Shown one piece after another: positions 1 to 4,536 of a stretch of 51,262 nt of DNA. A program made the position numbers and the translations under genes. The notes under the pieces were generated by a model that was not told the DNA's origin, made no database searches, and saw only the letters and a list, made by a program, of their open reading frames with translations. The stretch comes from a virus (Duplodnaviria; Caudoviricetes): IMG/VR virus record IMGVR_UViG_3300033067_000549, positions 1 through 51,262 of that record. One strand, written 5' to 3'. Positions within the stretch are counted from its first letter, which is position 1, and each line of letters opens with the position of its first letter.

Positions 1-9
1 CAAGATCCG

Positions 10-64
10 CTCCACCCCCACCCCCGGGCGACGAGCCCGAGCCGCCGGTCAAAACCCGCAAGGG
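10..64. repeat. 55-bp terminal direct repeat, left copy (circular-assembly overlap)
   Basis: CTCCACCCCCACCCCCGGGCGAC...AAAACCCGCAAGGG at 10-64 is identical to 51208-51262; bases 1-9 do not match the sequence preceding the right copy. Confidence 0.95.
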
Positions 65-401
65 CACCCGGCTCCCGGAGGATTTCATCCCGGACAGCAG
101 TTGCGAGGCGACGGCCCGGGAGTTGAAGTTCTCGAACGGGGACTGGAAGCGAGCCCTCCAAGAGTTCCGCGACTATTGGGCAGGGGTCCCGGGCCAGAAG
201 GGCACCAAGCTCGACTGGCAAGCCACGTTCCGTAATTCGCTCCGCCGCTATGCCGAGAGGAAAACCTATGGAAAACCTGCCAACCAAGCAGCAATGGAAG
301 CCGCTTTCGACAACCTCGAAGGAAAGATTAGCCAGCATCGTCACCCGGATGATGGCCCCGAAGGACCTCAACCACCGGACCCCTCTGGTCTCGCCTACTG
401 A
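63..401 (+). CDS. C-terminal half of phage replication initiator (lambda O/DnaT-like C-terminal domain); joins 50853-51262 across the circular junction
   Basis: Frame is continuous across the junction; motif KGTRLPEDFIPD...FRDYW...KGTKLDWQATFRN is typical of phage initiator C-termini. Confidence 0.8.
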   Translation, partial: GTRLPEDFIPDSSCEATARELKFSNGDWKRALQEFRDYWAGVPGQKGTKLDWQATFRNSLRRYAERKTYGKPANQAAMEAAFDNLEGKISQHRHPDDGPEGPQPPDPSGLAY

Positions 402-885
402 GGCGCAAGAGTTGATCGAGGCCATCGAGGCCCGGGGCGACGTGACCACCCACCCCCAGCTTGCGGCCTCCTCGGCGCGGACCCTGATGGGGATGTTCCC
501 GGCCAAGGCCTTCAATGACCCGGAGGTATTCGTCACGGCGCTCACCGCGCTGTTCTCGGCCTATGACCACGAGTTCATCAAGGCGATCTGCAACCCGGTC
601 GATGGCCTGCCGACCCGGCTCAAGTATGCCGTCTCCCTCGCCGACGTGAAGGAGGCCCTCGAAGCCGAGCGCAACAAGCGCCTTGCCCTCCTGTCCCGCG
701 CCCGGTGGACACTCCGGGAACATGCCCGGCGGGAGGAGGAGGAAAAGGACCGGCAGTTCAAGCTCACCCCCGAGGAGGTGGAGCGGCGCAAGCGACACGT
801 TGCCACATTGCTCGGGCCGAAGGACATGGAGCATGGTGAGCCATTGAAGATTGAGACCAAGGAGGAATCCGATGAGCAGACTTGA
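268..885 (+). CDS. putative helicase loader / replication accessory protein (lambda P position)
   Basis: ATG 268 with GAGAGG RBS, overlaps the initiator 3' end; function inferred from position only. Confidence 0.5.
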   Translation: MENLPTKQQWKPLSTTSKERLASIVTRMMAPKDLNHRTPLVSPTEAQELIEAIEARGDVTTHPQLAASSARTLMGMFPAKAFNDPEVFVTALTALFSAYDHEFIKAICNPVDGLPTRLKYAVSLADVKEALEAERNKRLALLSRARWTLREHARREEEEKDRQFKLTPEEVERRKRHVATLLGPKDMEHGEPLKIETKEESDEQT

Positions 886-1306
886 AGCGGCCGAACAGGC
901 GGCAGCGGACAAGGAGTCGCCTGAGACAGAACTCCGGCCCGCGCCGGATCAAACTTTGCCATCGTCGGCAGAGTTGCGGCACGAAATGCGGGAACTTGTC
1001 AAAGCCCAAGCCGATGAGATCACCGCTCTCCGCGCCAAGGTGGAACAGGCGGCCCGCGACGAAGTCGAGTTGCGCCGTGTCTATGAGGCTGAAATTGATT
1101 CCGCTTTCCGGGCCGACGTAATCGGGTGCGGCTGGCTCCCGCCTATCAAGGTCATCCTCACGGTGGCCCACCTCAACCATGACCCCACCGACAACCGGAT
1201 GGAGAACCTCCGGCACTGGTGCCAGAAATGCCACAACAGCTATGACGCCGCCCACCGGGCCGCGAACCGCAAGAGACGGTTGACGGAATCAAAACCCCCG
1301 GGCTAG
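872..1306 (+). CDS. HNH-like protein with coiled-coil N-terminus
   Basis: C-terminal LTVAHLNHDPTDNRMENLRHWCQKCHNSYD is an HNH signature; the usual N-terminal CxxC pair is missing. Confidence 0.6.
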   Translation: MSRLEAAEQAAADKESPETELRPAPDQTLPSSAELRHEMRELVKAQADEITALRAKVEQAARDEVELRRVYEAEIDSAFRADVIGCGWLPPIKVILTVAHLNHDPTDNRMENLRHWCQKCHNSYDAAHRAANRKRRLTESKPPG

Positions 1307-1320
1307 AACCCGGGGGCTTT
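1291..1320. terminator. bidirectional intrinsic terminator
   Basis: AAAACCCCCGGG-CTAGAA-CCCGGGGGCTTT hairpin at the convergence of two operons; pairing and U-tract are better on the minus strand. Confidence 0.75.
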
Positions 1321-1392
1321 GTGATTGCCTCGCAACGCTAGGACCCTCGGCTCCCCCACCCCTCAAGGCGGGAGTTGGGGGTCCAATCATTT

Positions 1393-2080
1393 GGGAATTA
1401 TATACATGACTACCGAAACTGACATGATCGCGGCTTTATATGTGGAAACAAGCGGATGTTATTTCGGGATGCCGGGCGTGGACCCTTGGGATGCAACCCG
1501 AGATGCACGCTCTTATCACGGTCCACATCCCGTTGTTGCTCACCCGCCCTGTCAGCGTTGGGGCAAGATGTGGGCGGGAAGCCCAAGTGTTATCGCAAAG
1601 ACTGGTATTCGCAAGGTCAAAGGCGACGATGGCGGATGCTTCAAGGCCGCAATAGCGGCTGTGAGGCGATGGGGCGGTGTTCTGGAGCATCCTTTTGGTA
1701 GCGCCGCATGGAAGCACTTTAACATCCCCGTTCCGCCCCGGAACGGTGGCTGGATACCAACCGGCGACGGCGGTTGGACGTGCTGCGTCGAACAGGGACG
1801 TTATGGTCATTACGCCCGCAAGCCAACATTGCTGGTGGCCTATTATTGCGACCTTCCCGAACTGGATTGGGGAATTGGTGAACCTCGTATTCCGCAATGG
1901 GCAATCGACAAATACGGACTGGAGCGCGCCAAGCGCAACGGTGAACTGTCATTCAAGGGCGGGGGCACTGACAGCAGCCCGCGCATCGCGACGCCTACGG
2001 CATTTCGTGACCTTCTTATAGACATGGCGCGCACGGCGAAGAAGATCAGAGAATGACAGGTAGTCATGTATATAAGTCCC
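1393..2080. mobile_element. non-autonomous IS1595-family (ISNwi1-group-like) insertion cassette carrying one passenger gene
   Basis: 22-bp TIRs at 1393-1414 (GGGAATTATATACATGACTACC) and 2059-2080 (21/22 match); 8-bp direct repeat AATCATTT at 1385-1392 and 2081-2088; no transposase inside; more A/T-ending codons than the flanks. Confidence 0.85.
1406..2056 (+). CDS. putative DNA cytosine methyltransferase-like protein (cassette passenger)
   Basis: IAALYV...DPWDATRDARSYHGPHPVVAHPPCQRWG (catalytic PC motif), VLEHP, GHYARKPT; start ATG lies inside the left TIR. Confidence 0.65.
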   Translation: MTTETDMIAALYVETSGCYFGMPGVDPWDATRDARSYHGPHPVVAHPPCQRWGKMWAGSPSVIAKTGIRKVKGDDGGCFKAAIAAVRRWGGVLEHPFGSAAWKHFNIPVPPRNGGWIPTGDGGWTCCVEQGRYGHYARKPTLLVAYYCDLPELDWGIGEPRIPQWAIDKYGLERAKRNGELSFKGGGTDSSPRIATPTAFRDLLIDMARTAKKIRE

Positions 2081-2082
2081 AA

Positions 2083-2391
2083 TCATTTCCAGCGGCCGCA
2101 CACTCCGGCGGAGTTCCGGGTCCTGCCCCGCTTGCACCGCTCCCGCTTCACCGGCTTTGCCGCCACCACCTGCACCGGGGCGGAGGCCTTCTCCAGTTCC
2201 GCCCGGAGCCGGACAATCTCCAAGGATTGCGCCTCGACCACCTGCCGGAGGGTGGTGGTTTGGGCGAAGCACAGTTCCCGGGCGCTCAGGGGCCTCTTGT
2301 AGAGCGTTGTGCAGTTCCCGGTGCATACCCCTTGCCCGAGGGCGGGAAGGCTGTAGGCGGCCACCAGAGCCACGGCAATCAGGGTTCGCAT
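2083..2391 (-). CDS. hypothetical exported protein
   Basis: Signal peptide MRTLIAVALVAAYSLPALG; GGAGGAG RBS; its stop codon lies in the right TSD. Confidence 0.7.
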   Translation of the reverse strand: MRTLIAVALVAAYSLPALGQGVCTGNCTTLYKRPLSARELCFAQTTTLRQVVEAQSLEIVRLRAELEKASAPVQVVAAKPVKRERCKRGRTRNSAGVCGRWK

Positions 2392-2393
2392 GG

Positions 2394-2732
2394 CTACTCC
2401 TCCTCCCCGGCATGTTCCTCGTGGTGTTCGATCATCTCGTAAACGTCCTCGAACCCATCCCCATCGGGAACAAATCCCTCGGGCGGGTTACCGTTCTCGG
2501 CGCTCTGGAGAGTGAGGAATCCGTGGCACGTCTTGGACTTCTCGCCGTGGACATAGCCTCCCCTGCCGTAGTCGTCCTCCTCCTGATAGTCGGCCGTCTT
2601 GTGACAGGGGAAATCATTGTAGCGGTTCTGTGCCATGTACGCGAAATCGGCCGCCCGGCTCGGAGAAAGCCACAGGGTCTTGCTCCGGGAGAACGGGCAG
2701 AGGGCGCAGGTCTTTTTCATGAAGTCGCTCAT
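2394..2732 (-). CDS. Cys-rich hypothetical phage protein
   Basis: CALCPF...FPCHKT...CHG putative metal-binding pattern; ATGA overlap with the upstream gene. Confidence 0.75.
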   Translation of the reverse strand: MSDFMKKTCALCPFSRSKTLWLSPSRAADFAYMAQNRYNDFPCHKTADYQEEDDYGRGGYVHGEKSKTCHGFLTLQSAENGNPPEGFVPDGDGFEDVYEMIEHHEEHAGEEE

Positions 2733-2971
2733 GCCCCTCCCTTGCTCCTCTCTGCCAGCATGGCATCGGCCATCTGGTAGGCAAACTCGGCGACCCCCTT
2801 GGGCTTGGGGGACACGTCGGTTGCGAAACTTGCCAGCCATCCGGCGAGGGCTTGAGCCGCGAAGTAATCCCGGAGGGTCATGCCGGGGTCGGCGTAGCTC
2901 GCCACCCGGGCATTGTCATAGCCCTTCCAGTTTCGAGGAAACGCGGACTCCCTCCTGATGATGTCAGACAT
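2729..2971 (-). CDS. conserved small phage protein (GMTLRDYFAAQA family)
   Basis: AFP...GMTLRDYFAAQAL...AYQMADAMLAER motif. Confidence 0.8.
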   Translation of the reverse strand: MSDIIRRESAFPRNWKGYDNARVASYADPGMTLRDYFAAQALAGWLASFATDVSPKPKGVAEFAYQMADAMLAERSKGGA

Positions 2972-3215
2972 TGGCCTTCTCCTTGAGTTGCTTCTTGAGT
3001 TCATAGATTCGCTGGGTCGCCCGGCGGATGAGGTCCGGGCCAAAACCAATCTTGCCGTTGAGGTCGGGCACCTTGAGCTTGGCGATCTGCTCCTCGGTGA
3101 ACGCCATCTCCTTGAGCCCTTGGTCATAGCCCCGGGCGAGGTAGCGGTTGGCGAGGCGCATCTGGGACCGGTTGCGCTCGTAGCCCTTGATCTTCTCGCG
3201 GATGGTGGCGGTCAT
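2964..3215 (-). CDS. small protein paralogous to the middle of the DUF3560 protein
   Basis: Aligns by eye to the LREKLEK...IAHLER segment of 3400-4200; GGAGGAG RBS. Confidence 0.7.
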   Translation of the reverse strand: MTATIREKIKGYERNRSQMRLANRYLARGYDQGLKEMAFTEEQIAKLKVPDLNGKIGFGPDLIRRATQRIYELKKQLKEKANV

Positions 3216-3403
3216 TCTCCTCCCTCCATGATGTAGTCGGCCCAATCTTGGGCATCTATCGGACTGTAGAAGGTGGCCGATGATTGCCCCTTGCGGGTCC
3301 ACACATTTGCCCGGAACATCCCGTCGGCCATCGCCGTGACGGTAGCGCGGGCGGCCGGAGCCGCCCTCACCAGTCTGCCGAGCGCGTTGAATGCCCATTT
3401 CAC
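3212..3403 (-). CDS. hypothetical protein
   Basis: GTG start with AAGGAGG RBS; translationally coupled on both sides. Confidence 0.65.
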   Translation of the reverse strand: MKWAFNALGRLVRAAPAARATVTAMADGMFRANVWTRKGQSSATFYSPIDAQDWADYIMEGGE

Positions 3404-4200
3404 GAGGTCACCTCCTTGCTACGCAATTCCTTGAGTATGGACTCGGCGGCCCAGATTGCCGAGTTGCCGAGGTGGCGCTGCCATGCGCCCGAGGTCGGAG
3501 ACCACCGGAACCCGGAGGCCTTGAGCTTGCCGCGGACCTCGGCGTCCGGCTTGCCCGGAAAGATGATCTGGAGCCGGTTCTCCTCGACGTTCTGCACCAA
3601 CTTGATGCCGGTGTTTCCGATGTCCACCTCCTTGTGTTCGCGGGTCGCGGCACGTTCGAGGTGGGCAATGCGGTCCTTCACGCGCTTGATGTTGGCGTTG
3701 TTGTTGCTGAGAGCGTAGGGCGGGAAGCCGATGGGGCCGCGGCCGTTGCCCCACTGAGGGACCTTGAGTTCCGCGATCATCTTCTCGGAGAACCCGAGAG
3801 CCTTGAGCGCGGCATCGTCGCCCTTGCGGAGCGCGGCGTTGGCCGCCTTCATGCGGGCTTGTGCAGCCTCCAGCTTCTCCAGCTTCTCGCGGAGCTTGTC
3901 CGGTGCATCCGGGTCATCCGACGAGATACCGGCGGAGCCCACCGATTCCGCGGCCGAGCGAGCCCGGGCGGCGGCCTTGTCTGCCTCGATGGCCTTCCGC
4001 ATGTGGCTGTCATGCTTGGCGAGGGCGGCGCGGTGGCGGCGCTCGCTGTGATGACCGACGAGGATGGGCTGTCCGAACGGGATGCCCGCAACCTCGGCGC
4101 TCGCGGCCTTGAACCGGGCGGCTGAAATCCTATCCAGCTTCTCCGCCCGGGCGAGGAGGCGCTCGCGGCGGGCCTCCTGCTTTGCTTCATAGTGGTTCAT
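3400..4200 (-). CDS. DUF3560 domain protein
   Basis: IPFGQPILVGHHSERRHR signature, ISSDDPDA, LSNNNANIKR, C-terminal LKASGFRWSP..GAWQR. Confidence 0.85.
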   Translation of the reverse strand: MNHYEAKQEARRERLLARAEKLDRISAARFKAASAEVAGIPFGQPILVGHHSERRHRAALAKHDSHMRKAIEADKAAARARSAAESVGSAGISSDDPDAPDKLREKLEKLEAAQARMKAANAALRKGDDAALKALGFSEKMIAELKVPQWGNGRGPIGFPPYALSNNNANIKRVKDRIAHLERAATREHKEVDIGNTGIKLVQNVEENRLQIIFPGKPDAEVRGKLKASGFRWSPTSGAWQRHLGNSAIWAAESILKELRSKEVTS

Positions 4201-4209
4201 GGTGTCCTC

Positions 4210-4536
4210 CTATTCAATCCGGTCATGGATGGGGAGCGCCCCAAGGAAGGGGGCTCCGGTGATCTTCTCGACTGCCCGAACAAAGCGCCCGTCCGAGCAT
4301 CCGGCATAACTGCCGCCGAACATCACCCACTTGCCCCCGGCATCAGCCGGAATGAGCTTGGCGCAACCGGGCAGGTTGCCCTTGACCAGCTTCAAGACGG
4401 GGAGGCCCTTGGCCTCAAAAATCTCGGGGATGTCGTCGCCCACCACGAGAGCCTCGTTATGGGTCTCGGAAAGCCCCCCGTTCGCGCATTTGCGGAACAG
4501 GGGATTCGAGAAAATGTAAACTGAAAGTCCCTTCAT
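4210..4536 (-). CDS. conserved hypothetical phage protein
   Basis: CANGGLS...MFGGSY..SDGRF...LPIHDRIE pattern; AAGGAG RBS. Confidence 0.75.
   Translation of the reverse strand: MKGLSVYIFSNPLFRKCANGGLSETHNEALVVGDDIPEIFEAKGLPVLKLVKGNLPGCAKLIPADAGGKWVMFGGSYAGCSDGRFVRAVEKITGAPFLGALPIHDRIE

Follow-up and report, generated by a model that had tools for sequence, protein, structure and literature searches.

How did a single gene bracketed by inverted repeats come to lie between two operons of a wastewater phage? The window considered here, by which we mean the whole stretch of DNA analysed, is the entire IMG/VR virus record IMGVR_UViG_3300033067_000549 (51,262 bases; 97% complete by CheckV), and the phage that it represents occurs in wastewater and activated-sludge runs. 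The element in question is a cassette of 688 bp at positions 1393-2080. A first-pass annotation of the sequence had proposed that it is a derivative of the IS1595 family of insertion sequences (IS) that has no transposase of its own, is moved in trans, and delivers a methylase-like gene into the phage. We find that the element is almost certainly a transposase-less IS1595-family mobile insertion cassette (MIC), and the fuller reading, in which it is mobilised in trans and carries a C5-methyltransferase-like passenger, is highly probable.

Boundaries and composition of the element

The cassette is delimited by terminal inverted repeats (TIRs) of 22 nt that match at 21 of 22 positions, reading from the ends inward GGGAATTATATACATGACTACC on the left (1393-1414, plus strand) and GGGACTTATATACATGACTACC on the right (2059-2080, minus strand). 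A repeat search recovers these as arms of 24 nt (1391-1414 and 2059-2082; 96% complementary), which rank first among the non-palindromic inverted repeats with spacings of up to 3 kb in the entire 51-kb window. A 10-nt direct repeat, CCAATCATTT, is found at 1383-1392 and 2079-2088. Its last 8 nt, AATCATTT, form a perfect target duplication (left copy 1385-1392, right copy 2081-2088), and the CC leading the right-hand copy of the longer repeat consists of TIR bases. The resulting 2-nt ambiguity in the boundaries is settled because the unlike flanks of a second copy of the cassette, found in sequencing run X2 and described below, start exactly at 1393 and 2080, and because the consensus of the family of ends starts GGG. 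The repeat search and the X2 flanks thus bear out the earlier description of a 688-bp element with 22-bp TIRs and a perfect 8-bp duplication. An 18-nt motif of the end, searched with up to 3 mismatches, occurs twice in the window against 0.01 occurrences expected by chance; further copies of the ends, beyond the cassette's own two, were not found in this phage.

The cassette has a G+C content of 56.2%, compared with 62.9% for the window, which places it in the lowest 0.2% of 688-nt windows. As the first-pass annotation had remarked, its codons end more often in A or T than those of the phage backbone: G+C content at third codon positions (GC3) is 0.57 in the cargo gene and 0.71-0.85 in eight neighbouring open reading frames (ORFs). 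The segment is compositionally foreign to the phage.

The sole ORF of the cassette is the passenger gene (1406-2056, plus strand), which encodes a protein of 216 amino acids, P0001. Its first ATG occupies positions 14-16 of the left TIR, and its TGA stop codon (2054-2056) falls 2 nt short of the right TIR. No IS1595 transposase was found inside the cassette, where the passenger is the single ORF, and the element is therefore an IS1595 derivative, a cassette, and not an IS.

Empty, filled and second-site alleles

We aligned Logan contigs from the public runs X2, X3, X12 and X19, each belonging to a different study, to window positions 1-4500. Runs X4-X11, X13-X18 and X20, which share part of the sequence words, do not enter into the evidence. 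Two contigs, of 544 nt in X3 (study P3) and of 5303 nt in X12 (study P7), have position 1382 joined to position 2079, which is the empty site that had been predicted. The 696 nt skipped at this joint correspond to the 688-nt cassette and a single copy of the 8-bp target; the CCAATCATTT repeat makes the position of the joint ambiguous by 10 nt, and the X12 contig shows 0 differences from the window across 2079-4500. The filled site is represented by a 4076-nt contig of X19 (study P11) that crosses both junctions with 0 differences. The copy of the cassette in X2 differs at a single base over 1481-2080 and is set between flanks unlike those of the window, the left flank ending ...ACCTTTAGAAA and the right flank starting TTTAGAAATCACGG..., with an 8-bp duplication, TTTAGAAA, that differs from AATCATTT. 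The phage population is polymorphic for the insertion, which is of recent date, and the unlike flanks in X2 show that this cassette also occupies a second site, with a duplication of its own. The element thus combines the features of a MIC: IS-type ends, no transposase, a passenger gene, and movement, as seen in the empty, filled and second-site alleles.

The X12 empty-site contig also skips 63 nt (1177-1239; 21 codons, in frame) within the gene for an HNH endonuclease that lies to the left of the cassette at 851-1306. This gap suggests a separate phage lineage that never received the insertion. A search of IMG/VR for the exact 18-nt empty-site string returned two loci (L135 and L136) with no flank similarity; we rejected both as empty-site relatives, their unlike flanks marking them as chance matches. 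The exact 30-nt junction of TIR and cargo was absent from the metagenome_contigs collection.

Elements sharing the same ends

The exact 18-nt end motif was found at no fewer than 127 viral loci in IMG/VR and at 116 genome loci (contigs from one genome per species). Inward-facing ends were paired by script, giving 40 rows in the viral set (183-1878 bp), among which are the window itself and some duplicates; 30 of the 40 have a perfect 8-bp duplication. When the viral and genome sets are pooled, 78 distinct insertions of 100-1962 bp remain, 55 of them with perfect 8-bp duplications. Family duplications have an A+T content of 81%, with the bias strongest at positions 2-7, and the consensus of 110 ends is GGGAaTTATATACaTGACTccc, with no conservation past position 22.

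Same-ended elements of 1448-1962 bp contain 13 IS1595 transposase ORFs (4 of 37 and 9 of 20 ORFs scanned), which have the DDE domain PF12762 (E 1e-32 to 1e-47) plus the zinc ribbon PF12760. All five that were tested matched NF033547, the NCBIfam model of the IS1595 transposase, with 194-209 bits against a cut-off of 75. These relatives place the cassette in the IS1595 family, as first proposed. Transposases sharing these ends have a mutual identity of 58-85%, with one at approximately 37%, and they are at most 45.5% identical to any transposase in 72,556 plasmid records. Since the 18-nt end is exact while the transposases have diverged, the ends are far better conserved than the enzyme. The cassette ends, GGGAATTAT, also fit the form ggnnatTAT, which we take to be the end consensus of the ISNwi1 group.

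The first-pass annotation regarded the element as a clue to the host of the phage. This expectation did not survive the wider search: the exact end is found in genomes, among them metagenome-assembled genomes (MAGs), of Acidobacteriota, Oligoflexia, Thermodesulfobacteriota, Alpha- and Gammaproteobacteria, Chloroflexota, Spirochaetes, Planctomycetota, Gemmatimonadota and others, as well as in one archaeal MAG (Methanophagales). With ends spread over so many phyla, the cassette gives no useful host clue.

Same-ended elements with other cargos, which had also been foreseen, do occur. In one-gene cassettes the cargo is often for DNA modification: an N6/N4 DNA methyltransferase in L041 and L072, another DNA methyltransferase in L086, a Mom-like modification protein in L033 and L081, and a PAPS-reductase-like protein in L029 and L066. 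Other cargos include TnpB, an ASCH protein, DUF1643, DUF3307, a nucleotidyltransferase/HEPN protein and several unknowns. Many of these sister cassettes are packed like the one in the window. Their longest ORF begins either at the ATG of the TIR (position 14) or at a distance of 30-45 nt from the end, and it finishes within a few bases of the far TIR, or inside it; such close packing is thus characteristic of the family. In reverse complement, the end holds a perfect TATAAT, pointing outward.

Gene-less same-ended members, in the form of transposable elements of the miniature inverted-repeat type (MITEs) of 100-214 bp, also occur, many of them in one Oligoflexia MAG. In that MAG a burst of 170-177-bp MITEs occupies many sites, each with its own perfect 8-bp duplication (L141, L155, L161, L190, L200, L227, L244, L150, L183, L184 and others). 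TnpB/OrfB_IS605, with helix-turn-helix, OrfB and Cas12f-like TNB domains, is the only cargo of L185:2001-3262 (equal to L186), L157:733-2018, L193, L010:1501-2710 and L038:91-1432, and one TnpB-carrying element has the perfect 8-bp duplication CTATTCTG; a guide-RNA nuclease gene would here travel as the passenger of a DDE cassette. L146:2001-3453, with the perfect duplication TTCTTTTT, encodes a 323-amino-acid protein with nucleotidyltransferase and weak HEPN matches, which, from its sequence, resembles a fused module of the toxin-antitoxin or defence type.

Some of the autonomous elements hold a second ORF. In L170:1425-1835 and L175:2170-2577 an ORF of 136-137 codons directly follows the transposase with overlapping stop and start codons; these two ORFs are 95% identical, and other copies have unrelated ORFs of 176-251 amino acids in this place. 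A Pfam scan of eight ORFs downstream of the transposase assigned a family to none of them. Of nine autonomous elements inspected, seven (L170, L068, L209, L189, L204, L196 and L175) have an open frame running antisense along the full length of the transposase gene, in the codon-register frame and sometimes beginning at the ATG of the TIR; its being open is equivalent to an absence of TTA, CTA and TCA codons. We rejected these antisense ORFs as genes; five other copies have 2-5 stops. They are probably a by-product of codon usage.

The passenger family

P0001 matches phrog_12600, a family of unknown function, with E 4e-71. It is a very large family: of 8000 clusters scored at 90% identity at least 7890 match, and 2033 representatives of clusters at 50% identity do so at E<=1e-3. 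None of the 120 clusters listed at 90% identity carries a Pfam domain. Relatives are encoded by phages of Pseudomonas, Caulobacter, Ralstonia and Xanthomonas and by two microviruses (13 records). In four named phages the gene is part of replication-module operons, in which stop and start codons often overlap. The top 80 viral relatives and the top 80 from metagenomes (63-75% identity) are without flanking TIRs of this type, a lone match with 4 mismatches being taken as chance. Nor were relatives of the passenger found at the 243 TIR loci, about a third of which offer only approximately 300 nt per side. As the relatives are not flanked by the ends, and the loci with the ends lack relatives, the cassette represents a rare capture of an ordinary phage gene that is normally resident.

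The first-pass annotation described one gene with its ATG inside the left TIR and its stop 2 nt before the right TIR. That layout of the ORF stands, and the position of the start is less firm: among the 120 closest homologues, 56 have their first residue at the position of Met7 (ATG 1424), and the start actually used may be either the TIR ATG at 1406 or this family-typical codon.

Structure and likely function of the passenger

The AlphaFold model of P0001 has a predicted local distance difference test score (pLDDT) of 94.2 and a predicted template modelling score (pTM) of 0.90. In a Foldseek search of the Protein Data Bank (PDB), the rows listed were all C5-cytosine DNA methyltransferases (best E 8e-3). 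A VIA search, which is independent of Foldseek, likewise returned members of the C5-methyltransferase family in all of its 12 best rows, with Z scores of 8.1 for DNMT3A (173 residues aligned), 8.0 for DNMT3B, 6.8 for both a prophage enzyme and M.MpeI, and 6.5 for M.HhaI. VIA alignments to the C5 enzymes cover residues 1-216, whereas those to other class-I methyltransferases reach only to about residue 150. Named hits in BFVD are viral cytosine methylases, several of 210-250 amino acids (best E 1.8e-4).

An alignment of 68 sequences of the family shows invariant Y19, H46, C49, D75, G91, E94, P96, A101, Q130, K139, T141, L143 and P197. In the model, H46-P-P-C49 follows the strand at 43-45, and E94 lies in the strand at 91-96 (LEHP). 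Judged by strand order in the predicted structure, and not by superposition of residues, Pro-Cys49 and E94 would occupy the places of motifs IV and VI of the C5 enzymes. In a comparison with Dcm by hhalign, only a C-terminal R-x-x-T-P...L was aligned, with the motif-IX-like RRLTPRE...L of Dcm; this match is not significant. A PDB sequence search with the passenger returned nothing relevant, and Atlas gave a lead only at rank 30, a PF00145-bearing cluster with a score of 0.90.

One relative is Gp8 of Ebor, a Rhodobacter microvirus, which the available text of PMC11980548 calls a putative DNA methylase on the basis of HHpred. It shares 33.6% identity with P0001 over residues 8-153 and is likewise a sporadic accessory gene. 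Gp8 differs in its length of 163 amino acids and in that no cassette is reported in that text, where its role as a methylase is equally putative.

The earlier label of a methylase-like gene thus holds at the level of fold and motifs, where C5 enzymes are the closest, and finds no counterpart in Pfam or hhalign. The passenger is a C5-methyltransferase-like protein, not a demonstrated member of PF00145. It probably has some role in modifying pyrimidines of DNA or nucleotides; that the modification is methylation of cytosine is a narrower proposal, drawn from the model, which we favour slightly.

Proposed mechanism and alternative explanations

The course of events that we propose is as follows. 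Two 22-nt ends, the presumed binding sites of a transposase, enclose one passenger gene and no transposase. An IS1595-type DDE transposase, coming from an autonomous element with the same ends that resides in the host, in a prophage or in a phage infecting the same cell, would bind these ends, and the cassette would have been inserted into the AT-rich 8-bp target AATCATTT between two convergent operons, duplicating the target. We infer mobilisation in trans because the phage has neither an IS1595 transposase nor further copies of the ends. Once in place, the passenger, as a minimal core of the C5-cytosine-methyltransferase type (with the invariant Pro-Cys49 and Glu94), would most likely modify cytosine in phage DNA, and this modification would protect the DNA against host restriction.

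Several results weigh against this account. A search of the phage, at its 97% completeness, gave no match to PF12762 anywhere, so the phage itself offers no transposase partner. The inner variant of the window's TIR, ...ACTACC, occurs in no sampled autonomous element, those having ...ACTCCC. Evidence for the empty site consists of contigs, not raw reads. No promoter or Shine-Dalgarno sequence was identified for the passenger, and the sole promoter-like site faces outward (1397-1425, minus strand; -35 ATGTCA, 17 nt, and -10 TATAAT within the TIR); a consensus scan found this one candidate, as a pattern match, against 0.5 expected. As regards the passenger protein, Foldseek returned no PDB hit at E<=1e-3, and Z scores of about 8 fall in the range that the search tool grades as possibly just a common arrangement. 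P0001 had no match in Pfam (E<=10) or NCBIfam, and none of 68 family members matched PF00145 at E<=1. Comparison by hhalign with Dcm and a 15-sequence Dcm alignment gave a probability of 0.1%, a negative that is weak because the alignment is shallow (74-99% identity). In the model, residues 1-45 form three short strands and no helix, and no helix precedes residue 60. The FxGxG loop of motif I, which binds S-adenosylmethionine (SAM), and its helix were not found, residues 11-21 reading LYVETSGCYFG. With neither an N-terminal helix nor a glycine loop, SAM binding is not evident.

These last points lend appreciable weight, short of an even chance, to an alternative that accepts the cassette as described and holds that the passenger is not a SAM-dependent DNA methyltransferase. 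Through its Cys and Glu half the protein would then carry out some other pyrimidine chemistry or use another cofactor, or it would be a non-catalytic DNA-binding protein. An N-terminal segment of 45 residues with neither SAM-binding helices nor a glycine-rich loop speaks for this alternative, as does the lack of profile similarity to PF00145 or Dcm, and one structural neighbour, 8yf3 (Z 6.2), is a C5-carboxymethyltransferase that uses a different donor. The Ebor authors, in the part of PMC11980548 available, were unable to say whether Gp8 or host enzymes methylate the genome. Set against these are the invariant Pro-Cys and Glu at the motif IV and VI places in strand order, the C-terminal R-x-x-T-P...L laid on Dcm by hhalign (again, not significantly), and the best BFVD matches, which are viral proteins of 210-250 amino acids annotated as cytosine methylases.

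A very improbable alternative denies that the repeats are transposon ends. The passenger would then be a 'moron' acquired by illegitimate recombination or by homing driven by the HNH endonuclease, and the empty allele would have arisen by deletion between the 10-nt repeats. Such a direct repeat could indeed allow slipped deletion, and the HNH gene ends only 87 nt to the left of the element. However, dozens of unrelated cargos, with differing 8-bp duplications, are enclosed by these 18-nt ends, as are IS1595 transposases, and the cassette occurs at a second site with a duplication of its own. The HNH gene, moreover, is no part of the element, and the empty-site allele has it too, the X12 contig covering it except for the 63-nt gap. 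That the insertion is an assembly chimera, a concern for any metagenome-assembled record such as the window, is in effect ruled out because the X19 contig, from an independent study, matches across both junctions.

Genomic context of the insertion

To the left of the cassette, which we return to here as an IS1595-type insertion, is the end of a rightward operon consisting of a replication-initiator fragment, an unknown ORF and, as its last gene, the HNH endonuclease (plus strand; phrog_1571, E 5.5e-15). A G+C-rich hairpin at 1295-1316, with an A-run before it and a T-run after it, was found by a scan of the plus strand and is also predicted to fold on the minus strand (followed by UUUUGAUU, z -3.7). 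It is the only terminator-like hairpin near the cassette. As it has a U-run on both strands, it is probably a bidirectional terminator that serves both of the convergent operons.

To the right is the end of a leftward operon of small genes. Its last gene (2083-2391, minus strand) encodes 102 amino acids and belongs to no PHROG family; the target copy to the right of the cassette includes the stop codon of this gene (TCA on the plus strand at 2083-2085). The element did land at this stop codon, as the first-pass annotation had it, and the stop was simply retained because it falls within the duplicated target. The same annotation held that the insertion had parted this operon from its terminator. 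The hairpin now lies 688 nt further off, a displacement that the insertion would have caused; its part in ending leftward transcription is probable, as argued above.

A 266-amino-acid protein encoded at window positions 3400-4200 (minus strand) matches phrog_6744 and the primase-like phrog_19458. It is the only neighbour with IMG/VR relatives, at two loci with 41-51% identity and without synteny; IMG/VR held no relatives of the 102-amino-acid protein. With only two distant loci matching the larger neighbour, the phage has no close relative in IMG/VR. A blastn comparison of the phage with 50,697 phage records gave short matches only, and no tRNA was found in the window.

Relationship to known mobile elements and implications

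The cassette is of a kind already known, represented by MICs and by transporter IS. The IS1595 family includes such 'transporter IS' forms with passenger genes (Siguier, Gagnevin & Chandler 2009, as cited in the available part of PMC3129680). With this family, so far as that account describes it, the elements studied here share short TIRs, an 8-bp duplication, and same-ended full elements encoding a zinc-ribbon and DDE transposase, some of the full-length elements carrying extra ORFs after the transposase in the manner of transporter IS. The window's element differs in having no transposase, and the transposases of its clade in their distance from plasmid ones. MICs, such as MIC231, derived from IS231 in Bacillus cereus (De Palmenaer et al. 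2004, as cited in the same part of PMC3129680), similarly have IS ends around one or more passenger genes, no transposase, and movement in trans by a cognate IS, which for our cassette is the probable route. In contrast to MIC231 as described there, the window's cassette belongs to another IS family, resides in a phage genome, and has its gene packed tightly between the ends. MITEs are common to prokaryote and viral genomes, according to the available text of PMC11602168, and are likewise non-autonomous TIR elements of viruses and cells, with the gene-less same-ended members as counterparts here. The window's element differs from them in holding a full gene, and the term IS1595 does not occur in that text. 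A literature search that did not cover subscription journals found no paper on IS1595-derived cassettes in phages.

Judged by its model, the passenger appears to share with the C5 methyltransferases (M.HhaI, M.HaeIII, DNMT3A/B; PF00145), its best structural matches, a Pro-Cys after a strand, a Glu ending the next core strand and a C-terminal T-P...L helix motif. It departs from them in its 216 amino acids, with no PF00145 match, FxGxG loop, early helices or sizeable target-recognition domain.

We suggest tentatively, and with more doubt than belief, that the cassette is one unit of a virus-adapted gene-shuttling system built on IS1595 ends, with a role comparable to that of integron cassettes. 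The end may have stayed exact across many phyla, despite diverged transposases, because it might double as an expression adaptor, with its inward ATG at positions 14-16 and its outward TATAAT. If this were true, single accessory genes, chiefly for DNA modification and counter-defence, would be inserted between operons in a form fit for immediate use and exchanged by unrelated phages, and the passenger family would be a new and very abundant class of minimal cytosine-modifying enzymes.

To the known systems, this phage adds filled, empty and second-site alleles of one cassette in public data, together with a cargo from a very large unannotated C5-methyltransferase-like family. It thereby offers a concrete route by which phages may gain accessory genes, namely trans-mobilised, IS-derived cassettes aimed at AT-rich intergenic spots. 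The passenger family, which has no Pfam model and only a putative function, reaches even microviruses of 6 kb. If the passenger does modify cytosine, the family would constitute a widespread minimal anti-restriction enzyme.

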